DNA from: Paramecium tetraurelia
Taxonomy: Eukaryota
NCBI GenBank assembly: GCA_000165425.1
Contig: CT868252.1
Span: forward strand, 489,600-509,599
Length of the DNA: 20,000 bases
Direction of reading: 5' to 3'
The notes beneath the pieces were generated by a model that did not search any database, was not told the DNA's origin, and saw only the letters and a list, made by a program, of their open reading frames with translations. Shown in pieces: positions 1-20,000 of the stretch. Within the stretch, counting starts at the first letter, position 1, and the number at the start of each line of letters is the position of its first letter. The position numbers and the translations under genes are program-made.

Positions 1-2334
1 CTTTCGTTTGCTTGATCACCTCATCATCATTGACCCAAGGTTAGATGGCTGGCTGTGCCCATTTTGATAGCCCTTATTTTATATCTCTATATTCAAATCT
101 CTTATCGCATAGATAAACAATACTTAATAATATTATTATATTTTTACCCATAATCATTTATGTGTCGAATAACTCTTCCCATGGCTTGATTAGTAGCACG
201 AATGGCCTATTGAGTATACCACTCAGAGCTCTTTATTCGTTATTAATTAGTAAATTCTGGATCATTAAAGATTTTATCCAAGTAGCCCATTTTCTCTAGT
301 AGATGATTGTCTTATTTAGGAGGATAGGGAACCCCAACTAAAAATATAGCTCTACATAATTCATCAGAGAAATCAATTCCTTCAGCAACCTTTCCTCTAT
401 GGACTGCAAACATGATGGCACCTTTCTTAGACTTTTATTTGTATAGATCAAAAACGTTCTGCATTTCTGCACTTTGCTATGGTTCCCATAAGCAGGCTTT
501 GATTTCACATAACCTAGGTAATAATTTATTATATGTCCATTTGCTTCTGAATTTATTCATGAGACTATAGGATGAGAAAATAACAAGAATTCCATTGGGA
601 ATAATCTAACTTAAGCTTAATAATGTAACACCAAATTTGCTGACTTATTCCTCGTTGTTTCTTTAATTGAATGAAAAATCAAAAGTTTTATGTTAGAAAA
701 CTCTAAGATTTTTATTGAGGTCAATTATATGCTCATTAACTAGTTAAACTTCAAAAGGTATTCTTAATTCACAAGCCCATGATGGCATTGGGGACAGTGT
801 ACCAGATGTCAACAAGATTGAGTATATACTTTTACTGAATAGCCTAGAAAAGGCAAGGGAGGGTTCAAGACACCACATATTAATGGATAACTAATTAGAT
901 TAGTCAAGAATGAAAGACAATTTGTATTGATTAAACTCGTTTTATAAAGAGTTTAATGATAATTTTTATTTCTCTCTTTCATCTTCAACCTTGATTAGAT
1001 CAAAAACATTTTTCATAAACTTAACCCATGATTCAAAATGATAACCTGGAATCTGAGATAATTCACCCATAACTTCAATCAAAACAGAACAATGAATCAG
1101 ATATTTAGCAAAATTATTTTTATTGACTCCTTTTGCATAATTAGTCTAGGAATTCTCAGACCACAATCTAAATGTGTTTTCTTTGTCTTGAGTGTGTTCA
1201 AAAATCATATTTTATATTCTTCGAGCATCTGAAATTAAATATTTCTCATCCTTATCAGAAATGACAAATTCTGGATTATTTTTGAATGATTCAATATATT
1301 AAGCAAATACTCTAATTGTAATCATGATCGATCTGAATTCCTTTAATTCAGTCGGTACTTTAGCTGAATTTAATTTAGCTTTTAATTGATCATAAAAGAT
1401 CGAGACTGATTCCAACTCATCAATCCACTTTTCAAGATCTTTTTCAGCTTCTATTATATTGTTATGAGTGATAAGAAATGAAGAACCTTCTTCAGCTGTC
1501 GACTACACATTATGTGCTTCATCAAAAATCAAAATGGAATTTTCAATTTCAACAACATCTTAAAAGTCTTTCTCTAAGAGGTAATTATATGGAAGCAATA
1601 TGAGGTCTGCAAAATCCAATCTTTATCTCTCGAAATAATAAGGGCACAATTTATTTTTAAATCCAAATTATTTTGCTTCATCTAGACTACTTATCAATGT
1701 ACTATAATTTTGAGCCATAAGTATGAGATGTTCTTTTTTATAAAATTGACATTAATTTGACTTGACTGATTTTCGGCAACTTTAATTTAACAAAGTCCCT
1801 TTAATCGCACTAAAATCACCTCTTATACAATATTAATCCCTTGATCCAAGCATAGAAACATTAGGTTTATAGACGGTCTTCTTCAACTCCATAGCCACTT
1901 ATTTTAATTGAGCATGGGTTCTTGAAGAATAGATAATTTTAATATTCTTAGGCTGATCAGAATTTAATTGATCTTTTCTATTCTTTTTTAACCATGCCAA
2001 AGAAGCACAAAGCAAAGATAAAGTTTTGCCTGTCCCTGTTGGGGATTCCAATCTAATCTTTATTGATTTTAATAATATACAATGCATTTTATTTCTTATT
2101 TAACGCTCTTATCACACTTTCCATATAACTCTTTTAAACATCATATGGCTAATGAGGAAAATACACAGGAGTATTATCCAATACAAGTGAAGCTTGTTTC
2201 TTACACATGTTTCCATCTATTTCAATTTCCTTGACCATCATCTTATGGGTGCGTTCAGACTCCTCATCCAACAGTTGATGATGCTGAGCTTGCTTAGTAG
2301 CGAAGTATTATTGCAGTCCGAATGGAGTTTTCAT
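1..2334 (-). CDS. XPD/DinG-family Fe-S DNA helicase, RTEL1/FANCJ-like (3' end lies beyond the window); introns 2053-2080 (28 nt) and 123-147 (25 nt)
   Basis: Code-6 translation from ATG 2334: [10 protein letters not shown]...VYFPHQPYDVQKSYM (Q motif). After intron removal it reads [22 protein letters not shown] (Walker A), [11 protein letters not shown], Fe-S cysteines (SRDQYC...SC...QC...LCPYY), ILIFDEAHN (Walker B), [54 protein letters not shown]. Codon phase is consistent across both introns. Confidence 0.93.
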
Positions 2335-2973: not shown

Positions 2974-5923
2974 ATGACTAACTTGAAGTTGTTCTAAGTG
3001 ACTGGCTATCAAAATGAAATTATTGTATAAAAATATCCCTATTACTAGATTAAATCAGAATTACCATACATAACCACCTACCTAAAGTTTCATCGATTTT
3101 CATAAATCATTGAAGAATCACCAAAATTTTAGGAATAGGAAGGAAATATCAAAGGAGATAAAAGATGCTCATACATCTTAGGAGTCTTTAAGACTTATAA
3201 TAAATCATTCATAGTGATTGTTGATGAATGCACAAAAGTTGCAACAATTCAGGATCAAATTATATATCACATTGATCAAGTGTCCTACTTTGCCATCGAT
3301 GTAAAACAAACATTTAATTAGAGGACTATAATCCTAATAACAATAAAGATATTTTGGAAAGCATAAACAATCAAAAAAAACTATTGTAATCAGGATTCTA
3401 CTTCTCGCTCTATGGAGATATAACTCTTGCAAGACATTTTTAAAAGTATGAAAATAGTTTTGTTTGGAATAATAAACTCCTAAGCTCTTTTAGAGAGAAT
3501 AAGATTTCCTCTAGTTGGCAATTGCCTATGATCTAGGGTTATGTTGAATAAATAGATTCCTAAATTGATAAATAGCCAGTTACAGTAGTTTTGATTTCCA
3601 GAAGAAGCAGATTTATGGGAGGAACTCGCTATTACTCAAGAGGAGTAAATGATGATGGCCATGTGGCTAATTTTGTTGAAACAGAGCAAATAATTATCTC
3701 AGGTTCAATTTTAATAAGTTTTGTTGTTATAAGAGGATCAGTTCCTTTATTTTGGAATTAAGATGGTGTTAATAGTATAAAACTAACTAGATCAAAAGAA
3801 TTAACATAATCTGCGTTTAGCAAACATTTTAATCTTTTAAGAAGATATGGCAAAATATTTTGCATTAATTTAATGTAAAATAGTAGATAATTAGAATAAG
3901 TATTAACAGAAAACTTTTACTATCAACTCTAAAAGGCTAAATTAGATCATGTTAATTATTAATCTGTTGATTTTCATTCTTTAGTTAAAAATGGTAAGTC
4001 TTCTGGAGTTAATTCCTACATATATTAATATGATTAAACTTTGGAAAAATTTTAGTGCTATTTTGAAAAAGATAGACAAATGATAAAAAAATAAAATGGA
4101 GTCTTTCGAATCAATTGTTTGGATTGCTTGGATAGAACAAATTTATTTATGAGTAAGCTTTGTCTTTATAGTTTGGAGCGAGCTTTAAGAAATTTAAATC
4201 TATAATTAAGTGGTAATAATGATATCCTTAATTCTTTTGATGAGAACAATAAAAAATTATTACATGATCTAATCATAAAATATAAGATTATGTGGGCTAA
4301 TAATGGAGATATGTTGAGTTTCATTTATTCAGGATCAGGAAGTACTGTATCAGAGATGGCGAGAGAGGGAAAAAGAGGTTTTATGGGAATGCTCAAAGAT
4401 GGATACAATAACATCGAGAGATTTTATAATCGCCAATTTGAAGATGATGCTAAACAAAATACTATAAACTAATTATTGTATCAGTCAACATCATAAACTC
4501 ATTTTGATAGTTGGATTGCTCAGTAAGAGAAGCAATTCTGCACATTTAGTGAAATTTCAATTTTATTAATTACATGGAATGTTGGTGGTAATACTCCGAT
4601 AACAAAAGACTTTTTATAAAATATATTACATTTTCAAGAACAATCTAATCCAGATGTTATTGTCTTTGGTTTATAAGAAATTGTTGATTTGAATCCATAA
4701 AATATTGTGATTATGAGCAACGAAAAAACCCTTTAGTTGTGGAATTAATTGATTCAATCTAACTTGTCAAAAATAGATTCCTATACAAAAATAGGAAATA
4801 GTGATTTAGTTGGTTTATATTTAGCAATTTTTGTGAAAACAAATTAAATCTCAAGAATAACATAAATTGATACAGATGCTATTAAAACTGGTTTGGGTGG
4901 CACGTTGGGTAATAAAGGAGGTGTTTCGGTGAAATTTAATTTTGATGATTCTCTAGTAAATATGTTGTTTATCAATTATTTTAGTTAGGATTTACTTGTT
5001 GTCATCTTACATCTGGTAATAAATAATGTCAATAAAGATTATCAGACATAGATGAGATTCATCAAAAAGCCTTTTAAAATTCTAAATAGAAGATTAGTTT
5101 AAAGAACCTCGATTATTCATTTTTTTTCGGTGATATGAATTTCAGAATTGAATTGTCATATTAAGAAGTTATTGAACAAATTAAGAATTATCAATAATTA
5201 ATTTCAGAAGATCCAAATAGCCAGAAAGCAAAAAGAAAATTAGCCCATTTATTGAATTTCGATCAACTTGGAAAAAACAAAAATAAAAATTAACACCTTC
5301 AAAACTATCATGAAGGTAGCATCAATTTTTTACCAACCTATAAATATGATAAAAACTGTCAAATTTATGATACTTCAACAAAATTAAGAATACCTTCTTG
5401 GTGTGATAGAATTTTAGTTAATTGCAAAGAGGAATTGATTTGTTCATAACGTTATTATTAAAGAAATGAATGCTTAGATAGCGATCATCGGCCTGTATCT
5501 AGTTATTATGTTATTGAAATCAAAAAAATAGATAAAGAAAAGTTAGAATCTGTAAAATCTCTATATTGCTTATCATAAATGTAGAATTTTAAGTCTCCCC
5601 CACCTAACTTTGATGTTTCAACAAAACCTTTTCCAACTAAATAATTTTAACAACCTCAATAACCTTAATAATATGGTAACTATTAAGATCTCTCATAAGA
5701 ATCATAGAATGATTAATAAAGAAACTAACAATAACTTAATTTAACTCCATAACACTAATAATAGATTTAAAACACTTAAGATTTTTTGAAAAATAATTAA
5801 GATAAATAATAATAGTATTCTTAATAACATTAAGGCTTCGAATAATATACTTTTGAATAGATGTTATAGTAATAAAAATCTGCCTAATAACAATCAAATT
5901 AACATAAGCTTGATTTATAATGA
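2974..5923 (+). CDS. Synaptojanin/Inp5x-like phosphoinositide phosphatase: SAC1 domain + inositol polyphosphate 5-phosphatase domain + Q/N-rich tail (~965 aa); introns 3301-3323 and 4956-4984
   Basis: SAC motifs [46 protein letters not shown] and catalytic CX5RT in [13 protein letters not shown]. 5-phosphatase motifs [56 protein letters not shown] at 2974, TGA at 5921-5923. Confidence 0.95.
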
Positions 5924-6047
5924 ATTGTATTTTATTATCCAATAATTGAAATAATTTTTGAGTCTTTTAGTTTGGTATTCAATAGGTATATAAATTATTT
6001 AATAAATAACTGTTTATAAATTATCATATTATAAATATAAAATGATT

Positions 6048-9000
6048 TCATAAATTTTTCTCTGAATTTGAAGATACTTAACTTCCAATCAAATTGGCCA
6101 TTCCTGAATTCATTATTTTCATAGTCATCTAAGCTTTTTCTTTCTTTAATTTTGTAACTTAATCTGATAAACACTTGTTTTACTCATTTAAACTTAAATA
6201 TTCTTTATTTAAATCTATTTTTTCTTGCTTTAAACTTGTATTTTATTTCTGTAGGGAGTCAATTTATTATTAAAGGGCAATAATCTTATTGTTCAAATTA
6301 TCACTTATTTGCTAATTTTCCCTTTTGAGCTAATTAATCGTTTATAAATTATTATTGTTTTAATCTTGAAGTGATTAGATTTAACTTTCATATTTTTAAG
6401 TCTATTATATTTTCTCCTTTTTTATTTGATTTAATTATTCTTATAAATTTAAATTTGCTTCTTATAATTTGTAAAGGTCACCTTAGCTATTTGGCTAAGA
6501 GATAGGTTTATCGTTTTTCTAACCAGCAAGTTCCTCTTCTAAATTTTAATTGATCTCATTCAATCTTGATATGTCATCTTCAGTTGCTAGTAATTATTAT
6601 TCTAAATTTTTTATCTTTTATTAGTAAATTGAAAGCTATTTGTTATTAATTTTTATTTAATCATCATATGTCCCAATTCTTAATTCTAGTTCCTTTATTT
6701 TATTTTCATAATATTTTTACATTGAGACAGTTTAATTTTCTGTCTCCTCCACTGTTTTTTATTTTAACTCAAAATCTTTAGTTTTAAGTTAATTTTCTTT
6801 TAGTTTTTATTCTAATAACTTAATTTATTAATCTTTTTCAATGATTTATTTTTCTAAATCAACAGGTTTTTGGTCTCGCCTTAACGAATTTGGTTGTGCA
6901 ATTTAATTGTCTTAATTTTTTTTTTGCAACATTTAAATTTACTGTTCAATGATTTACTTTTATTCTTCGAAACGCTAAATAATAAAATGATAAATGTTAC
7001 TTATTTCTATTCACTTTATTCTTTTAAGGATTAATCATATTTCTCCTATAACTCTTTTAAATTTTGTTCCAATATTTCATTATAATTGATCAACTCCACA
7101 TTTTTAATTTTAAGTTGTTTAATTTACTATCATAATTACTAAAATTAAATACATCCTGAAATTATTATTTTTCACTCATCATAATTTAATCATTTTATTT
7201 TCTTCTTAACTATTCTTCTTCATTTAATTTTTAATATAGTTCTTTTATTTAAGATTCTTTTTTGCTGTCCAGCTTTTAACTGGTTTCTAATTACGATTTT
7301 AATTCTTCAATTTATTATTTTTACTGTTTTATTAAATTATTACTTTAATCTTATTCTCGATTGTTTTTCTCTTCCATTAATTCAAGCTAAGCTTACAATG
7401 TTTTAATTTTATTTTCAAAATCTCTGTTTATTTCAAAAACTTAATCTAAATGATGCAAAAGTAAATCCATTTCTTCTTTTTTATAAGATAATTATTATTC
7501 CAACTATTAAATTCTCTCTGTAGAATCATATGTGTCTGATTTTCGAGTAAAATTTTAAAAATTATTTTAATTAGAATTTCCAATCATAGAATTTAATTCT
7601 TAAATTTACTTAGTAAGAGATAATGTTTTATATTGTGAATCTTTGGTTAGATTTTAATATGCAGCCTCTTAATTTATCATAGCTTATTCTAAATTGTCAG
7701 CCTTTTTTTTTATTTTATTCATTTACTCGACTAAAGTTTTATTTTCCTATACTAAAACAGCTATCTTTTATTCTAAAAATAAAATCGATTATTTTTGTGA
7801 ACTAATTTAAGATTCTTTCTAAAATTAAATAGATGATATCATACATCTTGGCTTATTTTATTTATCTTATCTTCATACAATTATTACAGTTGTTGTTTTT
7901 CTACAATACTGATTTTTTGTACTTCTTCTAGTTTCCCATTTATGTGATGCTAAACCTAAATTTATTAACTTTATAATGTCTATTTGTGAGTTTAATCCAA
8001 TTCAACCATCTATTAACTCAAAATTGTATTATGTTATTTTAACTCATTTATTAGTTATTCCTGTTGTCTTTATTTCTAAGTATATTAATTTATCAGTTAT
8101 TTTGTATTGTTTTCATATTTTTCTAAAGATGTATTATAATTATTCTAGAGCTTTTCATATTCCAATTTCTTTTCTTCTAGTGCTTAATGATACATATTTA
8201 GATCATTGATTCTATCCTCTAAATATATTGGGATAAAGATTACATAAACTTTTTTAGATTTCTTTATTTTGATTTACTACATTATTTATTAAATCTTGCT
8301 ATTTCTGATTATCTTTTTGTTAGATAGCTAGTTTAGCATTAAGATTATTAATAACAGCATCAGTTTCTGTTTTTAAAAGAACATATTATTATTTCCATGT
8401 TTACTCTAAACCATTTAAGTTTTCTTGAGCCTAAAATTTTATTGCTTATAAATCTCTTTAATGAGCTAATTAATTATTAGCCATGATATCATCAAATTAT
8501 CGCTTATTATTTATTTTTTCTTGTTCGTTTAAAATAATTTGCTATTTTAGTTGCATGTTTTCTTTGAGCAATTACTCTATTTATTTTTATTGATCTTTTA
8601 TTTTATCATTTGTTTATTGTAAGGCTACTTTAAGCTAAATAATTAATGTAATGATTACTTCATTTACAACTTATACTAAAGGCTATAGTTAAGCTACATT
8701 TCTTAATAAATCTACATTTTATTCTTTCAAATTTCTGTAGGTTTGATCACTAATTGGACTATTGGTTGGAAACAATTGAACTGGCTGAGGAAGTTATTAC
8801 GGTGGAGTTTATTTTGGTAAAGTAGAAACGCTTTAAACCATTCTATTGTTAGGTGTTTAATTTGGTGTCTGATCATACTAGCTAGGAGGATATTACTGTT
8901 TAACACTTGGTGTCTATGATTATGATTATGATTATGAAGTTGATTCTTGTAATTTTCCGAGTCTATCTAGAAGTCTTGAAATATCACTAAGTTTTTAATC

Positions 9001-9242
9001 AAATTTTACTTTTGAAATTACTTTTAATCTTAAATGATATTTTAAACCTATTTCAATTTATCTTGCTCTCCATTATCTTAGTTTTCTGGTTGATTCATAT
9101 TTGGAAATATTTGCTTGTATTTCTCATCTTACTCATTTTATTGACTAATGATATTTGTATATTAATACTCCTTATTGGGTTATTATTTTTAGATAAGAGC
9201 ACTTAAGTTACTTAGTTTCTCTCCTATTGGCTTTCTTTCCAT
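6048..9242 (-). CDS. Large Gln/Glu/Lys-rich coiled-coil protein of unknown function (~1039 aa); introns 8987-9009, 7127-7152, 6975-7000
   Basis: ATG at 9242 (MERKPIGEKLSNL...) to TGA at 6050-6048. The frame changes are explained by three GT..TAG introns of 23, 26 and 26 nt. TAA/TAG (Gln) usage is heavy and the composition is heptad-like. The middle was spot-checked rather than read codon by codon. No family recognised. Confidence 0.8.
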
Positions 9243-9506
9243 CAAAATAGGAATAATTTTGAAATAATATAAATAAATTTTATATAATCTGATAATTATA
9301 AAAACTATGTTTAATATCAAGTTTTTATCAGCATTTGAATAGAAATGTCTCCATCAATTTAATGATTCTTCAGAAATTTAATTTATATTGGTATGCTAAT
9401 ATAGTGAATTAAATAGTTTACGATATTGCTTACATTCAAATATTTTAAATATTAAGCTCATAAAATTCTACAATATATATTTATTTATAGCGATTAAATC
9501 AAATCG

Positions 9507-10255
9507 ATGCAAGTTAAATAAAAAGTTCTTTGTTTTCATGGATTTGGGACAAACTCGGATATTCTTTCTTATTAATTAAGATAGTTCAAGAAAGAGTTCA
9601 AAGACATTGAATTTATCACACTAAATGGACCTATTCCATTAAATAGGAATGTAAAATTTTCTAAAATAATCAGATTATTATGGATGAAAATTTAGCTAAA
9701 ATGCTTGAGAATTAGAACATTTATAGTTGGATGAGTTTTCTTCATATGAAAAATAATGATATGAATTCAAGTATTTTATAATGCAATATCAAGTTTATTC
9801 TCCCGCTTTTGAAGAAGTTGTGAAAATATTAAAGGAGTAAGGCCCTTTTTTTGGAGTTATGGGATTTTCATAAGGATCTTCTATTGCTGTTAGGTTGGCA
9901 TCAAAAATTGCAGCTGGAGAGGTGGACTTAGGTTATGATCTATAATGCTTTATTTTTGTTTCAGCTTAAGTTAACCCCTTTGCTAACACAGACTCCAAAT
10001 CTTATTTGTGTAGAGTTCCTTCTCTACATTTGATTGGAATGAATGATTTTTTAGTAGATAGGTATGTTTAATGAATAAAATAGATCTTTAGGATTAGTTG
10101 TGCAATTTCTAAATCCTTATGTTATCTATCATAATCAAGGACATAAAGTTCCAACTCTAACTTATGAATAAGTGAAAGAATTATAGAAATTCTTTCAAAA
10201 TCCAGCTCAAGATTGGACAAAAACTGTGTATGTACCTCAATTAGCCAAATTATGA
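9507..10255 (+). CDS. FSH1/OVCA2-family serine hydrolase, copy A (226 aa), C-terminal -AKL; introns 9651-9673, 9771-9793, 10062-10083
   Basis: KVLCFHGFGTNS, LNGP, EQGPFFGVMGFSQG (nucleophile Ser), PSLHLIGMND (Asp), HNQGHKVP (His); ends YVPQLAKL-TGA. Confidence 0.92.
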
Positions 10256-10938
10256 ATTATAAAATGAAATGTTGATGGCTTAAATTATATTTGCATTTTA
10301 AAAAGGTTATAATCTAATTTGAACTTTTTAAGGGACAAAGATGTGTCCTTATAATTCATTTTATTTTTAAGAGTAAAAGTAGCATATTTTTTCTTGACAA
10401 ATTTATCAATAAATCAGATTCAAGGTGTTATAATTACCTTTCTTATTAAGTTCTCAGTTTAATTCTATTTCAAATATTTTCAAATTCAATTGATAAATTG
10501 AAATTTTCATTTTCTTCAAATATTTAGTTATTATTATAAAAACTAGAGTAATTTAAGATTTTAAAATAAAGTAATGATCTTTAAAATAGAATGTTATTCT
10601 ATTCTAACTTGTAATTTACAAATTTTACTTAAATATGAGATTTATTTTACAAGTTTTCGGGCTATAAATAGCAACAATATTATGTTTTAATGCACATAAT
10701 TAGTGTTATAACCTATTTTTAGATTATGCTTATCAATTTGATTAAAAAGAAGTTGCTGAAATTAGTTCACCAAGATAATCTGTTTACTTAATGTTGAAAA
10801 ACATTTGTTAAATCTAATTTTCATTTATTAATTTTTATTTAATGATTATGAGAGTGAGCCAATGTTGTTTCTAATTTAAAATTCCGGAGATCCATATTTT
10901 AAATTCATTATACTAAATTATTTAAAAAAATAATAACT

Positions 10939-11688
10939 ATGGAAGTAAAATAAAAAGTTTTGTGTTTTCATGGATTTGGGACAAATTCAGAACTCTTATC
11001 ATATCAGTTGAGATAGTTCAAGAAAGAATTTAAAGATATTGATTTTATTACACTTAATGGACCTATTCCATTAAATAGGAATGTAAACATTTCTAAAATC
11101 CTATAGGTAATTATGGATGAAAGTATAGCCAAAATGTTGGAGAATAAGAATATATATAGTTGGTTGAACTTTTTGTAATTTAAAAACAATGATATTGATT
11201 CAAGTAAGCTTAAATTAGCTATCTTAGTATTTTCTCCAGCATTAGAAGAAGTAGTGAAAATACTTAAGGAATAAGGACCCTTTTTTGGAGTTATGGGTTT
11301 TTCGTAAGGATCAGCCATTGCTGTTAGGCTAGCATCCAAAATTGCAGCTGGAGAAATTGATTTAGGATATGACTTAAAATGTTTCATTTTTGTTTCAGCT
11401 TAAGCAAATCATATTCCTGAAACAAAATAATTCTTATGTCGAATCCCTTCACTTCATTTAATAGGGTTTAATGATTTCGTTGTAGATAAGTAACATTCTT
11501 GAATAACCATATTTAGATCACTGGGATTAGTAGTGCAATTTCTAAATCCTTATGTAATATATCATAACTAAGGTCATAAAGTTCCTACCTTGACTTATGA
11601 ATAGGTAAAAGATCTTAAAAGATTTTTTGAAAATCCCCAAAAAGATTGGTCAAAAACAATTTATGTACCTAAATTAGCGAAATTGTGA
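10939..11688 (+). CDS. FSH1/OVCA2-family serine hydrolase, copy B (224 aa), tandem paralog, C-terminal -AKL; introns 11083-11106, 11204-11227, 11490-11516
   Basis: Same motifs as copy A (KVLCFHGFGTNS, GFSQG, PSLHLIGFND, HNQGHKVP) and the same three intron positions; ends YVPKLAKL-TGA. Confidence 0.92.
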
Positions 11689-11747
11689 TTTTATATATTT
11701 TTTTTTGACATATATCTTTAGTTATTTAATAACATAAAAAATTATTT

Positions 11748-12300
11748 ATGTAAGATGAGAAAACACTTAGACAATACGAAATCGGTGCAAAAGTAAAGAA
11801 TTTCATTCCTCAAATAACTAATTATTTAAAAATATTGCAAGATTTAGAATTTATTCCTTCAGATGGTACAAAATTAATTAAAAGAATTTCACTTCCCTAA
11901 AATTAAGCTAAAAGCGATAAACAATACCAATTTCATGGCACTAGAAATTCCATGATTACCTTATTGATGATTTGATATTAGGACTAAATTTAAATCTGCG
12001 TTTTAGAATCCTTAGTAAGTTTAACTAAATTATCTGCCTTTAGCTTTGAGATAGAGCACTTGTTTTGAAGTGAATCTATATTTGGAGTAATTATTTTATT
12101 TTTTCTTTAATTATGATGATGGACCTAAAAAACAAAAGTTTGGTTCCAAGATTCGTTCTTTTTATTGTGTTTCTTCCATGATTAAATTGATAGGTATTAA
12201 GGATATCATCAAATATTAAGAGTTCTCAGGTATCAACTAAATTTAATTATATTTCTAATTAATTCAACTAGGAACTTTTTTGAAGTAAATGCATTTTTGA
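11748..12300 (+). pseudogene. Possible decayed gene remnant or short ORF
   Basis: ATG at 11748 opens MQDEKTLRQYEIGAKVKNFIPQITNYLKILQDLEFIPSD..., which stops near 11975. Downstream coding-like pieces lie in different frames and are interrupted by TGA. Confidence 0.25.
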
Positions 12301-12416
12301 ATTATGAAAGCATTTATTTATAAAGAGAAAAGGGTTAAAATTAATATATTTATTCCAAAAAATTATGATTAATATAAGAATATTTATAATGCATATTATG
12401 TATTGTATTTAAATGT

Positions 12417-13521
12417 TCATTTGTAATGGTTGGTCCATGCAAATCTTTGAGTAGATTCATCCATTGTTCCTTATTTGATTCTCATAGAAAATACGTGTTT
12501 TGGTTTGCCGGTCAAGTAAATTTTTGCCTATTGTTTAGAATTAAGATAAGCATTAGGTAACCAATCAATGTTCTTAAATAAATACTTTATTTATTTACAT
12601 CAAAAATAGCAGGTTTTAAAGGTATTTCAAGATATTAATTGTGATAGTATAGAACAGGTGTTTAATATTAGAAGAATAAATCAAATAGCTATGATAATAA
12701 TTAAATAATACAGAAATATATTTTTAGGCCTTTACTAAACTTTCAACATTAATTGGTTTTCTTCTGATTTGGAAGTACACATAACCATAAAACCTAAAGA
12801 AGATTCCAGGTGGAGTGTAAGTTCCAGTCCTTTCAATTTCTGAAAGAACATCATTTACATTTACAAAAATACTTTACAATATTCTTTAAGAATTAATAAA
12901 TATGAGTACCTTTCAGCTTCAAAAGCATGTGTGATTCTTTCATTTATCAATGCTCTTTTAATAGGATGCTTATTAATCTCATTCTCATCCTTCATAATCA
13001 TTTCCTCTTCTGGTTTCTCCCATTCCTCAGGGTCAACTTCAAACCACTTCAAATCCCCATATATTGTATAATCAGCCTATATTTGTATAATTAGAAATAA
13101 ATACAAGCATCTTCTCACTTGTTGGATCTCCTCTATATCTAAGCATCCTATCATTAACATCTGAAAACATTGTAATTATTTCCTCCTTTTTTTGCTCTTC
13201 GTTTTCAATAGATTTTTATCTCAAATTGTCAATAGTTTAATTTGATATATGGGTCTGTTTTGCTTTTGCTTCTTACTTCTATTATTATTAAGAATTTTAA
13301 TAGGCAACATATCCGCCAGTACCCAAACCTACTATTCCGAAAAATGCTGCAAATATTTTCACAAGCTCAGTGTTTGAAGTACCTTATTAAGAGGACTAAC
13401 TGAAATAGCTTTTAGAGGTTTTATTCAGTTATTTTGAGAGTACTAAATTAATCACTCAGATTTTCATACATTATTAAGATGCATTGGACATTCTACTATA
13501 AGACATTAACCTTTGGATCAT
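12417..13521 (-). CDS. Hypothetical single-pass membrane protein, probably mitochondrial (~324 aa); introns 13443-13469, 13077-13104, 12884-12909, 12689-12711, 12573-12598
   Basis: ATG at 13521: MIQRLMSYSRMSNASQQLLSKQLNKTSKSYFSQSS (acid-free, Ser/basic-rich), then the hydrophobic IFAAFFGIVGLGTGGYVAY. Five GT..AG introns of 23-28 nt give a continuous 975-nt frame ending ...QRFAWTNHYK-TGA. Confidence 0.8.
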
Positions 13522-14329: not shown

Positions 14330-14390
14330 TTTATTTAAATGATCTAATTTAGATATTTATTTTCTATATAAATACTTATTTTATATCACA

Positions 14391-15210
14391 ATGAGAAAAC
14401 GTGAAAAATTAATTATATTATCTATTTCAGTTTCATGGCTGATTAATACAACTATAGATGACAGATCTAATATAACAACATCCGATAGTGACCTAATCTA
14501 AATAAAAAAAGTTGAAGTTTTGCAGTATCGTAAAAAATGAAATGAAAAAACAAGTTAAAATATGAAACATTTAAAGGTTCAAAAATAAGAAAAGTCAAAT
14601 CATTATAAAAGTAACATAATTGTATGAGGAAGAAAAGAAAGGAATATATAGAAAGTTCAATCAGGAATTTGAATCTTGAAAGGAGTCAATATATAAGATA
14701 GCGTAAAAAGAGAGGGAGGGAAGAGAAATATCAGAGATCAATGTACTTAAAGTAAAAGGAAGTTCTACATTTATAAAGGAAATCACAGTTCAAAATAGAT
14801 AAATGTAGTAAGAAAATTGGAAATATTTACTCCAAATAATAAAGGTAGCTAATAGTTTTATATCATTTAATTATTACGAAATAACGTAAGAAAGGTAGTG
14901 ATGTAAGTATATTAAATTAAATTTATAAGCGAAAATTTAAAAAGGAAAAAAGGAGAAAAAGAATACTAACATAAAAAGATGGGGAAAGATCAGAGACTAA
15001 AGGATCTTTACAAAAAAGAAATTAAGATTGATTTTTTTTATTTTATTAATGGATGCTCATAAAAAATGATAAAGTATAAATAGTATCGAGCTACTTTGAG
15101 TTTGTAATAGGAAAAAAGCTAATAGTTCAAGTATACAATCAAAATTTAGAAGAGGAAAAAAGAAAAAATGAATATAAAAATTTTCGGAAAATGTCCCTGT
15201 TGATTTGAAT
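14391..15210 (+). pseudogene. Possible decayed gene remnant (K/E/R-rich)
   Basis: About 0.8 kb of strongly purine-skewed, coding-like sequence with TGA stops in the frames examined and no intron model that restores a single ORF. Confidence 0.35.
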
Positions 15211-15333: not shown

Positions 15334-16385
15334 ATGGCAAATTAGGTTGAATTCAAATAACTTGGTTTCTTGAAAGGTCATGGTGATTGGGTTACTACTA
15401 TCATAACAAATTAAGATCCAACTTTGGCTGACTTAGTCATTTCAGGCTCAAGAGACAAATCCATTTTAGTTTGGAAACTATTCAAACAACCTGATGGTGA
15501 TTTAGCTGGTCAACCAAGAAAACAATTAAATGGACACTCTCACTTTGTTAGCGATTTAGTGTTGTCAAATGATAACAAATATTTATTATCTGCTTCATGG
15601 GACAAGGAATTGAGATTTTGGGATTTGGTTAATGGAACTTGCACACATAGATTCGTTGGAAATAAAAAGGAAATCTTTACATGCGCAATGAGTCCAGACA
15701 ATAGATAAATTCTTTGTGGTGGAGCTGAAAGAAAATTTAAATTATACAATGTTAAGGCTGAAGAAAAACTCACCCAATAAAGCCATCTCCACTCTGATTG
15801 GATCAGCTCTGTCAGATACTCACCAATTATCAAAAATATCTAACCATATTTTGTTACAGTTGGTTGGGACGGTTGGCTTAAAGTCTGGAATTAAAATTTT
15901 ACAATCAGATTCTAATTCAAAGCTCATGATTCTTAAATCAACAGCGTTGCCATTAATCCATCTGGTGAATACATTGCTACTGGAGGTAAAGACAAGAAAT
16001 TGTACATCTGGAACATTACCGATTTGAAGAAACCCCTTTGAATACGATGCTGGAGGAATCATTAATTAAGTAAATAAAAAAATTAATAAATAGCTCGCTT
16101 TCCATCCTTAATAAAATTGGATCGTTGCCGCCACAGAAAATGGAATAAAAGCTTGGTAAATATCATAAGAAGAAAAAGCTGAAACCAAAACACCAATTGT
16201 TACCTTAGATCATCACACTGAAAGTAATAATTATAAGTTATCGTTAAGCTTTGGTTGCTGGCGGAGTTAAGAAGATCTAAAAGCATGGTGCTATTTCTGT
16301 GGCCCTTGATGCTAATGGTGCTAAACTTTATGGAGGCTTCACAGATGGATCAATCTTAGTTTGGGAAGTTTCAACCAAAAATTGA
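15334..16385 (+). CDS. RACK1: RACK1 / guanine nucleotide-binding protein beta-like 40S ribosomal WD40 protein, interrupted by an in-frame TGA with continuation in the +1 frame at 16033-16041; introns 16070-16093 and 16224-16248
   Basis: LKGHGDWVTTI, ISGSRDKSILVWKL, GQPRKQLNGHSHFVSDLVLS, SASWDKELRFWDL, SPDNRQI, HSDWISSVRYSP, VGWDGWLKVWN, IATGGKDKKLYIWN. After the +1 shift: EYDAGGIINQLAFHPQQNWIVAATENGIKAW...KLYGGFTDGSILVWEV, with TGA at 16383-16385. Confidence 0.93.
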
Positions 16386-17403
16386 AATCATTATGTATAT
16401 TAAAAAAATTACAATAAACTTACACTATAAATATGATTTTGATAAAAATAAGTAGAAATAGAATTATATACAGTGAAATTATTATTGGAATTTAAAGTCG
16501 CAACATTTAACCGATTTTTTTTCTTTATTATAAGTGGATCACAGATTCTCTGCTTTACTCCTTATAGTTATTTATAAACAATTAAACAACAACTATGCTG
16601 TTTCAGATCATCTTGCATACAGCAAGTATTCTATTGTAATAAATTTGCAATATGTTGATTAATTTAAAAGAAAAGCTAATAGCATTTTAATTTAATAGTA
16701 TCTTTATAAACTTATGAATTATTATAAAATAAGAAAGTATGTTCAATCTTTTATTTATACACAATTATTATTTTAATCTAGCTTTGATCTTAAAAATAAC
16801 TGTCTATTGTTGAATTAGGATACAAATTTACAGGCTAAAATTATTATTATCAATAGTTTAATTTCAAATTTAATTTTGGCCCTAAATCCAAAAATAGAAA
16901 ATATCAATACAAAATTTGTTTGGCTTGCCATACAAATTAGACTTAGATGATTGTAATTGGAGTTAATGATCCTTCCATTTGATATAAATTGTTTTCGAAA
17001 TAATTTATTCTATCGTTACAATCCAATTTTTTTTTACTCACTCCATTTATATTTTTCCTGAAATTTTGTAATTTTAGTTTTGCGTCAATTTGAATTCTAA
17101 AAAAATAATATCTTCAATTAGTTACTTCTAAATTAAAATAAAATTCTCTTGCAAGATTATTAACAATATATAATAATTTAATTGAGACTTAAAATAAATC
17201 AATAAATATCAAATTTAATTACAGTTTTAACAGATTTAGTATAACTTGACATCAGTAAATTTTAGTTTTTTTCTTAAATAGAGAAAATTATTTAGAATTA
17301 TACTCAATCTTATTAATTTATTATTGATTATCCCTACATTCAAAAGTAAACTATTAAAATAGCATATATTTTATTTTTTAATAATTTTAACTTAATTTAT
17401 TTA

Positions 17404-17515
17404 AATATATTAAAAACTCAATTAATTACTATAATAAAAATATTAATAGAAATTTAGAATATATTAATAACTCAATTAATTACTATAAAAAATGTATTAA
17501 TAGAAAAATAGAATA
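17404..17515. repeat. Two imperfect 54-bp direct tandem repeats just upstream of the WD40 gene start
   Basis: Unit 1 (17404-17457): aatatattaaaaactcaattaattactataataaaaatattaatagaaatttag. Unit 2 (17458-17511): aatatattaataactcaattaattactataaaaaatgtattaatagaaaaatag. Confidence 0.85.
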
Positions 17516-17529
17516 ATTTCTTTTTTAAA

Positions 17530-20000
17530 ATGAATTGCAATTATCATCAAGATAGTCGAATAGAATTGATTTGTGTTGCTTCTCATAAATGTTAAAGGAA
17601 ACTCTGTTCATAATGCGAACATTAAGAGGAATACAGTACCCATGACGCACGTCTTTTCGAACAATTTCATAAATCACTATTAAAATAATTAGATGAATCA
17701 AATTTAGAAGAGAAAAATGATTTCAAATAAGATCTGAGTGATATTGAAAGTATGTTGTAAAAAATTAAGGAAGAATTATCAAAAATAATAGCAGAGATAT
17801 GTTATAATATTGATTAGAAAAACGAATATTATTTGAATGTGACAAATGAAACTACTAATCTAGCAGAATAGTCATATGTTAAATTAGAAGAATTGCTTGA
17901 AATTCATTAAGGAACATTATTAGATGATTGGAAATGCGAGAAACAATTTTATTTGGGCCAAATGAAAGACATGATACAATTTTCATAGAAAGAAATTACC
18001 ACTTTGAGTGAAAGGCTAAATCAAAAAATTATTTGTTTTAGAGAATTTCAAAAAATTGGATAAAAATGTTTCGTTTGGAAAGAAGATTTGTATGAGGTTT
18101 TAGCTTTAACAAAAGATATAAACAGTAATGATGAAATATTCAATGTTATTCTTTAAAGTATAAAAAAATAAGATAAAACCCCTCTAGATTATTGTTTTTT
18201 TAATTCTATTAAAAAAAAATTCAAAGAAGAAATCAATTTCTATAATCACGATTTAACTGAAATTTAAAAGTAAACCAAATTGAAGAATAAAAACAATGAT
18301 ATTTAGATTATCGCCCATGTTATCAAAAATATTCGCGAACTTGAATTTTATAAAATGAATTATTCTTTATAGGATTTTTAAGAAACTAGGAAAATCCTAA
18401 TTTAACAAATAGAAAACGATGAGAAGATTATGAAATTTTTAATATTTTTAGTAAAACTTACAAGCTTTGATGAAAAATTTATTTAATGTGGATCAAATTC
18501 ACTTAATTTGTTAGTTGAGATGAAGGCTGATCTGAGAGGATAATGCTTTAATAATATTAGGATATAAGATACTTTATTAATAAGAGCTAATTTTGCAAGG
18601 TGTAATTTGAGTAATTCATAATTCATAAATGTGAATATAAGCGGAATTAATGTAAATTAAGCTTAGCTAATTGGATGTAAATGGAGGAACTTAAAAATAA
18701 ATGAATTAATTAAATTATAAGGCCATAAAAACAGCATTTAATCAGTATGCTTCTCTCCTGATGGTAAGACATTAGCTTCTGCCAGTGACGATAAATCTAT
18801 TATTTTATGGGATGTTAAAACAGTACAATAAATAGCCAAATTAAATGGTCATAGCAATCCTGTCAGATCAGTTTGCTTCTCTCATGATGGTGCTACATTA
18901 GCATCTGGTAGCGGATATCCTATATATAACTTTGAAAATGATTCTGATGATTACTCTATCCGTTTATGGGATGTTAAAACAGGATAATAAAAAGCAAAAT
19001 TAAATGGTCATTGTAATTGTGTTTATTAAGTGTGCTTCTCCCCAAATAGAAGAATATTAGCATCTTGTAGTGATGATAGAACTATCCGTTTATGGGATAT
19101 AGAAAAATAAAAATAAATAGCCAAATTAGAGGGTCATTATAATGGCGTCTAATCTGTATCCTTCTCACCTGATGGTTCTAATTTAGCATCTGGTAGTTAT
19201 GATAAGTCTGTGCGTTTATGGGATCCTAGGACAGGATAATAAAAAGCAATATTAAATGGTCATTAAGATGATGTCATGTCAGTCTGTTTCTCTCCTGATG
19301 GAACTACATTAGCATCTGCTAGTAAAGATAAGTCTGTCCGTTTATGGGATGTTAAGACAGGAGAATAAAAAGCCAAATTAGATGGTCATTCAAGTTATGT
19401 TATGTCAGTCAACTTCTCTTCTGATGGTGCTACACTAGCATCTGGTAGTAGGGATCACTCTATCCGTTTATGGGATGTTAAGACAGGATAATAAACAGTT
19501 AATTTAGAGGCTAGTTCTATTCGATCAGTTTGTTTCTCACCTGATGGCTTAATATTAGCATCAGGTAGTTATGATAATTCAATCAGTTTATGGGATGTTA
19601 GAGTAGCTCAAGAAAATGCAAAAGTAGATGGTCATAGAAATATTTTCCAATAAGTATGCTTCTCTTCTGATGGCAATAAATTATATTCTTGTAGTGATGA
19701 TAAAACAATCCGTTTTTGGGATGTTAAGAAAGGTTAATAAATATCCAAGTTAAATGGTTTAAATTAAAATTTTCAATTTATATGCTTTCCAAGTAATGGT
19801 AATACAATTGCATATATATGTGATGACCACTCAATCAATTTAAAGGATGTTTAGACAGAGCAATTAATAGCCAAATTAAATGATTATAATGGAACTGTGT
19901 TGTCAGTAAGTTTTTGTAATAAAAGTTCTAAATTAGCATCTGGTAGTGATGATAATTCTATAGGAATGTGGGATGTTAAAACAGGAAAATTAATAGCTAA
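17530..20000 (+). CDS. Intronless Cys/His N-terminal + coiled-coil + pentapeptide-repeat + HET-E-like WD40-repeat protein (over 820 aa, 3' end beyond the window)
   Basis: ATG at 17530: [31 protein letters not shown]. No in-frame TGA to the window end. [68 protein letters not shown] (pentapeptide-like). Then 10 repeats of ~42 aa with consensus [41 protein letters not shown]. Confidence 0.92.
18712..20000 (+). repeat. Coding tandem array of ~126-nt WD40 units (10 in the window)
   Basis: Recurring DNA motifs tctcctgatgg, ttagcatctggtagt, cgtttatgggatgttaa(a/g)acagga and gccaaattaaatggtcat at ~126-nt spacing. Confidence 0.9.

Follow-up and report, generated by a model that had tools for sequence, protein, structure and literature searches.

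In bacterial prfB, the six bases CUU UGA form a +1 frameshift site that is conserved across bacteria, is stimulated by an upstream Shine-Dalgarno element, lies in the sole functional copy of its gene and acts as a feedback sensor of RF2. CUU also occupies the P site in the shifts of yeast Ty1, EST3 and ABP140, and a stop codon stands in the A site both at the antizyme site UCC-UGA, which is conserved and polyamine-sensing, and at the +1 shifts of the ciliate Euplotes, which are spread genome-wide and mostly fall at AAA-UAA/UAG. In Paramecium, work by Aury et al. in 2006 is said to have described pseudogenes left by duplicate loss after whole-genome duplication (WGD). Here we analysed a stretch of 20,000 nucleotides (nt) of Paramecium tetraurelia DNA (contig CT868252.1, positions 489,600 to 509,599, forward strand; hereafter the window), in which a gene for the seven-blade propeller protein RACK1 is cut short at CTT-TGA and goes on in the +1 frame.

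We conclude that the window copy is very probably a young, lineage-specific pseudogene of a minor RACK1 duplicate. Like other post-WGD Paramecium pseudogenes, it belongs to a pair of an intact, highly expressed copy and a low-expressed copy with a lineage-specific disabling lesion, and P. pentaurelia has a further RACK1 copy in a far more advanced state of decay; unlike them, its lesion is so young that the rest of the gene is undecayed. With prfB the locus shares the identical six bases and a protein that continues in +1, but the window site occurs in a single copy of a single species, is the mechanical result of a deletion and coexists with an intact paralogue. A stop codon in the A site is common to the window site, antizyme and Euplotes, the last also being a ciliate host, whereas neither the conservation nor the polyamine sensing of antizyme sites applies to the window site. 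Our literature search found no Euplotes-like frameshift system reported for Paramecium; of the matches listed for ribosomal frameshifting together with Paramecium and Euplotes, the available parts deal with Euplotes and other topics. The locus works like any post-duplication pseudogene, and its resemblance to prfB is limited to six bases.

The proposed course of events would be as follows. Once the lineages of P. tetraurelia and P. octaurelia had parted, AG would have been lost from the loop after blade 5 of the minor RACK1 copy. Ribosomes starting at the ATG would then halt at the TGA hidden in TTT-GAA and release a fragment of 235 amino acids (aa), which, with about five blades, would be unable to close a seven-blade propeller and is presumably useless. 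The intact sister copy would supply the cell's RACK1, the mRNA of the minor copy standing at about 1% or less. The pair presumably stems from the recent WGD, expression of the minor copy may well have been low before the lesion, and the whole would amount to ordinary duplicate loss after WGD.

The interrupted frame and its relatives

The window is AT-rich (21-32% GC), in keeping with the character of a ciliate nuclear genome, and was read with NCBI table 6 (ciliate code, in which TAA and TAG encode glutamine and UGA is the only stop). The RACK1 open reading frame (ORF) on the + strand runs from the ATG at 15334 to the TGA at 16039-16041 and encodes 235 aa ending in ...WNITDLKKPL. The letters at the break are AAG AAA CCC CTT TGA, with CCCC at 16033-36 and TTT at 16037-39. 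From 16034/16037 the +1 frame reads (P)FEYDAGGIINQ and, once two introns are removed, is free of stops up to the TGA at 16383-85. The seven blades do not lie in one continuous frame: frame 0 ends at 235 aa and the last 99 aa are in +1. No lesion other than this frame break was found in the gene. An earlier sequence-only reading of the window had described RACK1 as broken at CCC-CTT-TGA, with a product of 235 aa and a +1 tail containing two clean introns, and was correct in every detail; it had also put one more residue at this point in Tetrahymena RACK1 (P-x-x-E-F-D), as expected for a 2-nt deletion, and chain AR of 4bts indeed reads PQREFD.

The best database match of the window product was P0003, a P. 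tetraurelia protein of 334 aa with 97% identity, which differs from it at 6 of 234 residues in the frame-0 part and at 3 of 99 in the +1 tail. Residues 7-331 of P0003 align with Tetrahymena 40S RACK1 (4bts chain AR, E = 8.2e-101), and the frame-0 part of the window product matches Pfam WD40 (E = 5e-37). Through P0003 the window gene is a homologue of RACK1/Asc1 of the 40S head (Tetrahymena 4bts/4v5o chain R), from which it differs in that its frame breaks after about five blades. The frame-0 product (P0001) contains SGSRDKSILVWK, the Arg-Asp-Lys motif of blade 1 and a predicted ribosome contact; the role of this motif in ribosome contact comes from work on yeast Asc1. The 90% cluster of the best match holds seven full-length Paramecium proteins. 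Among them is P0124 (GSPATT00012567001 / CAK77042.1, 324 aa), which bears all the window-private residues and is the public protein of the window gene.

Alignment with eight other Paramecium RACK1 proteins showed how the break differs from its relatives. All seven other aurelia-complex proteins read KKPAFEYD and P. bursaria reads KPFAEFD; every one of the eight has two residues from P to E, as has Tetrahymena RACK1 (...LTYPQREFDAG in 4bts chain AR), whereas the window has one stray C and then TTT. The difference is seen at the nucleotide level in X21, an oligo-dT stranded RNA run with the same species label and reads of up to 58 nt, about a third of which was read. In this run, 1267 RNA reads match the window to 16034 and then continue with AGCCTTTGAATATGATG, the in-frame sister copy, while the window copy carries CCCCTTTGA at the break. 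Since the sister mRNA reads CC-AG-CC TTT GAA TAT (Pro-Ala-Phe-Glu-Tyr), the window copy has lost two bases, AG, in the loop after blade 5 (CC-AG-CC to CCCC). The TGA of the premature stop was already present within TTT-GAA and the C before TT ends the Ala codon, so CTT-TGA is the automatic outcome of the AG deletion.

Imprecise excision of an internal eliminated sequence (IES) was considered as the cause of the AG loss and rejected: IESs of Paramecium are bounded by TA dinucleotides, the CC/CC junction has no TA, and depth in the DNA run X7 is at the full copy level.

A maximum-likelihood tree of 10 proteins joins the window copy (as P0124) with P0126 of P. octaurelia (CAD8166712.1) in one clade, at support 98/95. 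The two have in common, against all others, N66, H105, the A of IKAWQ and the I of GAISV. This shared clade places the duplication before the split of P. tetraurelia and P. octaurelia. The direct orthologue, P0126, has an unbroken frame here (KKPAFEYD), and the window differs from it at 1 of 234 residues of the frame-0 part and at 2 of 99 residues of the tail, besides a 9-residue gap in the P0126 model. Because the +1 tail is only 2/99 residues away from the P. octaurelia orthologue and 3/99 from the sister copy, it is not a chance open frame. The deletion is therefore recent, neither additional protein changes nor another lesion accompanying it.

The gap in the P0126 model removes 9 blade-1 residues (IITNQDPTL; window ~15400-15426) that every other Paramecium copy has; it may be an annotation intron placed over a lesion or a real in-frame deletion.

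The P. pentaurelia protein P0004 (CAD8131407.1, annotated as 369 aa) is a heavily decayed RACK1 copy, with a tree branch of 0.23 against a median of 0.013. Conserved Trp residues have become Cys or Ser, the protein has internal gaps, and its C-terminal tail is divergent and unrelated. These features suggest that P0004 is probably an older pseudogene within the RACK1 family, from one or the other duplicate lineage, and its decay suggests that loss of a second RACK1 copy happened earlier in the species complex. According to the available part of 10.1101/573576, the lower-expressed duplicate is preferentially lost in Paramecium, a pattern that the window copy matches, and duplicates are retained most often among highly expressed genes. 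For the latter reason, the loss of a RACK1 copy runs somewhat against the trend.

Genomic DNA, gene model and transcripts

A break at two short homopolymer runs, in a species whose genome was first assembled in the days of Sanger sequencing, could be a sequencing or assembly error at CCCC/TTT, with the true gene in frame. We compared the window with contigs from runs X1 and X7, which come from two other studies, were assembled independently and are not flagged as possible sources of the window. Contig record 4 of X1 (15703-16701, 999 nt) and record 19 of X7 (15849-17800, 1952 nt) both cross the lesion with 0 other letters and 0 gaps relative to the window. The depth of the X7 contig at the lesion was 159.7 versus 179.8 in the upstream flank, and two values so alike rule out a minor somatic variant. 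In total, 14 runs from five studies contain 0.97-1.00 of the words sampled from the gene, two of these runs (X1 and X7) having been compared base by base. The difference from the sister copy is, moreover, the loss of AG and not a change in homopolymer length. An error in the assembly is refuted by these data, and we give it next to no probability.

The public gene model conceals the break. P0124 reads ...GGKDKKL-NPFEYDAGG... and is without the conserved YIWNITDLKK. When 16002-16029 (28 nt, GTACAT...TGAAG) and the two true introns were deleted by script, the translation was exactly P0124; the window gene is therefore the gene of P0124. The third intron would mean that a newly recruited splice restores the frame and yields a RACK1 of 324 aa without YIWNITDLKK. 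In its favor, only two of the GT..AG pairs of 15-80 nt that start in 15900-16044 reopen the frame, this one and one of 70 nt, and the 28-nt pair is the sole one of intron-like length; it is also used by the public annotation, and the median intron length in Paramecium is 25 nt in the available part of PMC5485702. The segment has GT..AG ends and lies within a length of about 20-35 nt, but it is without an AT-rich, non-coding interior: its GC content is 39%, compared with 35% in the exon and 8% and 20% in the true introns. Typical P. tetraurelia introns have 13-19% GC, and high GC is linked with poor splicing, as far as the accessible text of PMC8997360 goes. The residues that the segment encodes, a WD-repeat Trp among them, are present in 8/8 other Paramecium RACK1 proteins, and a product without them would lack part of a blade.

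The RNA reads bear on the same question. Window-type reads of X21 inside the segment number 13 (at 16008) and 7 (at 16020), compared with 8-11 at exonic sites, and this equality favors retention, at a depth too low to speak against a spliced minority. No splice joint was reported in RNA for the segment, nor for the two true introns (depth ~10, reads of up to 58 nt). Rescue of the gene by a recruited intron is accordingly a very improbable reading. Most likely, the 28 nt are no real intron and were invented in the public model to hold the frame open, masking the break.

One feature of the true introns may be mentioned here. Intron 1 (16070-16093) has 24 nt, a multiple of three, and no in-frame TGA, and its retention would insert VNKKINKQ; introns of this class, insensitive to nonsense-mediated decay, are reported as counter-selected in Paramecium in the accessible part of PMC8997360.

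Expression of the two copies was compared at nine diagnostic sites (listed in the table). X21 placed 3242 reads on the window, 3133 of them only 95-99% alike, and their patchy coverage is as expected of a diverged paralogue whose reads map to sufficiently similar stretches alone. All nine diagnostic differences are synonymous third-position changes, and the abundant reads therefore come from a conserved paralogue. Sister-allele reads with the in-frame AGCC junction are ~1280 deep. Window-type reads at the nine sites number, in order, 9, 10, 9, 11, 11, 8, 13, 7 and 0 (of 151-1292 in total); because their depth is flat at ~10 whatever the total, sequencing errors in the abundant copy do not account for them. 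DNA carry-over does not either, since both flanks of the gene have a depth of 0, and the first mates lie nearly all on the - strand, as expected for a + gene. In bins closed to mapping of the sister copy the depth was 1.2-6.9, versus 454-530 elsewhere.

The second RNA data set also set the two copies apart. In X15 (RNA contigs, organism B), a window-type contig at 15336-15527 has 0 differences and a depth of 23 and ends short of the lesion, while short pieces common to both copies or with the sister allele have depths of 9,933-13,000. Taking X21 and X15 together, the mRNA of the window copy amounts to roughly 0.2-1% of that of the sister copy, which is roughly 100-500-fold more abundant. In 6 of the 9 synonymous differences, a small and biased sample judged by putatively preferred codons, the sister has a C- or G-ending codon and the window T or A, which hints that codon selection may be weaker on the window copy.

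With the sister copy at this abundance, a +1 frameshift can be weighed, whether accidental or programmed. With UGA in the A site, tRNA-Leu would slip from the P-site codon CUU to UUU, and reading on as KKPL-EYDAGG... would give a full-length RACK1 one residue short in the loop. CTT-TGA, a slippery P-site codon followed by a stop, is present at 16036-41; the +1 frame is intact and conserved up to the normal stop, the copy is transcribed in sense, and the missing residue falls in a loop whose sequence differs from species to species (PAFE, PFAE, PQRE). However, conservation of the motif is lacking: it is compatible neither with any of the 8 other Paramecium proteins, the orthologue P0126 among them, nor with Tetrahymena RACK1. 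It is also the mechanical result of the AG deletion, and the abundance of intact sister mRNA would leave at most traces of any product. Over the 90 nt of spliced mRNA that follow the stop, folding is no stronger than in shuffled sequences (minimum free energy -9.3, shuffle mean -13.6, z = +1.45); many +1 frameshift sites need no RNA structure. The literature search yielded no report of frameshifting in Paramecium RACK1, none of the matches listed for Paramecium and RACK1 concerns the window gene, and for the gene identifiers no paper was found, with 0 occurrences in the readable supplements (three files) of PMC3091696. We consider such a shift very unlikely, and its existence as a selected, programmed device is not supported and has virtually no probability.

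A narrower form of the idea is that the AG loss by chance made a working CUU-UGA slip site, from which a trickle of full-length KKPL-EYD... protein arises. If true, the output would be set by frame-holding at the stop, which RACK1 itself influences, and the locus would be a feedback loop, newly born by accident and seen before decay or fixation. We regard this as a long shot.

Returning to the young pseudogene, the locus shows a disabling lesion in genomic DNA, an intact expressed paralogue in the same genome and strongly reduced mRNA. Several points weigh against this interpretation. The window copy is still transcribed in sense, at about 10 reads deep in X21 between flanks of 0. The protein gives no hint of relaxed constraint, with 3 differences from P0126 versus 7 within the intact pair P0003/P0128 (a hand count on the protein alignment). 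CUU-UGA is a textbook +1 site, and some read-through product may be made. The DNA runs may all derive from one laboratory stock, so that the lesion need not be fixed in the species, and the expression estimate comes from two RNA data sets of unspecified strain and growth condition, with reads of up to 58 nt.

The sequence-only reading, which had offered three explanations and ranked the mundane ones above a new mechanism, is partly supported. One of the mundane ones, a recently inactivated duplicate, is backed by the AG loss, the 8 intact Paramecium proteins, the low mRNA and the in-frame P. octaurelia orthologue; the alignment of paralogues and orthologues that it proposed as a check found the break private to the window copy and the 8 other Paramecium proteins in frame. 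The other, an indel of the assembly at CCCC/TTT, fell with the X1 and X7 contigs, which are identical to the window across the site. Its more exotic suggestion, an autoregulatory CUU-UGA +1 frameshift, found no backing in an unconserved motif that is a by-product of deletion, with an abundant intact sister and no 3' structure that stands out. The 28-nt intron by which the public model masks the break had been missed.

For users of the annotation, CAK77042.1 (324 aa) is best treated as a modelling artefact and flagged as a pseudogene in studies of orthology, duplicate retention and expression. The locus offers what is very probably a clean and datable, very early step in the loss of a highly expressed duplicate, with a single lesion, no other decay and a copy at ~1% of its partner's mRNA. 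It adds no new mechanism, the CTT-TGA look being a by-product of where the deletion fell.

Features of the window, with read counts at the nine diagnostic sites (other-letter reads/all reads)
Position	Strand	Feature	Basis
15334..16035	+	RACK1 exon 1, frame 0, ATG to ...TDLKKP (234 codons; blades 1 to ~5)	ORF, 97% identity to P0003, Pfam WD40
16033..16041	+	lesion CCCC TTT GA; AG missing between 16034 and 16035 relative to sister CC-AG-CC; premature stop 16039-41	RNA reads, DNA contigs
16037..16069	+	remainder of interrupted exon, sensible only in +1 (FEYDAGGIINQ)	translation, homologue alignment
16070..16093	+	intron 1, 24 nt, GT..AG, 8% GC	removal gives IINQ-LAFHPQQNW, as in all homologues
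16094..16223	+	exon LAFHPQQNWIVAATENGIKAWQ...HHTE	translation
16224..16248	+	intron 2, 25 nt, GT..AG, 20% GC	removal keeps +1 frame open
16249..16385	+	last exon, to normal stop TGA 16383-85	translation
16002..16029	+	28-nt 'intron' of public model; coding for (L)YIWNITDLKK	removal reproduces P0124 exactly
15492		diagnostic site, 142/151	X21
15504		diagnostic site, 146/156	X21
15702		diagnostic site, 215/224	X21
15738		diagnostic site, 1148/1159	X21
15744		diagnostic site, 949/960	X21
15879		diagnostic site, 377/385	X21
16008		diagnostic site, 1279/1292	X21
16020		diagnostic site, 1282/1289	X21
16370		diagnostic site, 153/153	X21
93-2087	-	DEAD_2 / Helicase_C_2 helicase (XPD/RTEL-like)	Pfam
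3354-5138	+	synaptojanin-like: SacI and inositol 5-phosphatase-type domain; an intron cuts the ORF end	Pfam
17080-19998	+	large protein, 8 or more WD40 repeats, running off the window; X21 RNA depth 0	Pfam

Sequence around the gene

Outside RACK1, the contigs of X1 and X7 break or enter unlike sequence at 16701-16761, 17408, 17762-17767 and 14373-14448. Loose contig ends of 255 letters occur, and 14 of the 21 placed records of X7 fit only partly. In a run containing micronuclear DNA, these breaks may mark inserts confined to the germline (IES) or alternative forms of rearrangement. The part of the window at ~5100-11000 has 21-25% GC and owes its ORF length to many TAA and TAG codons read as Gln (40-42 per ~290 codons); it is probably intergenic or non-coding.

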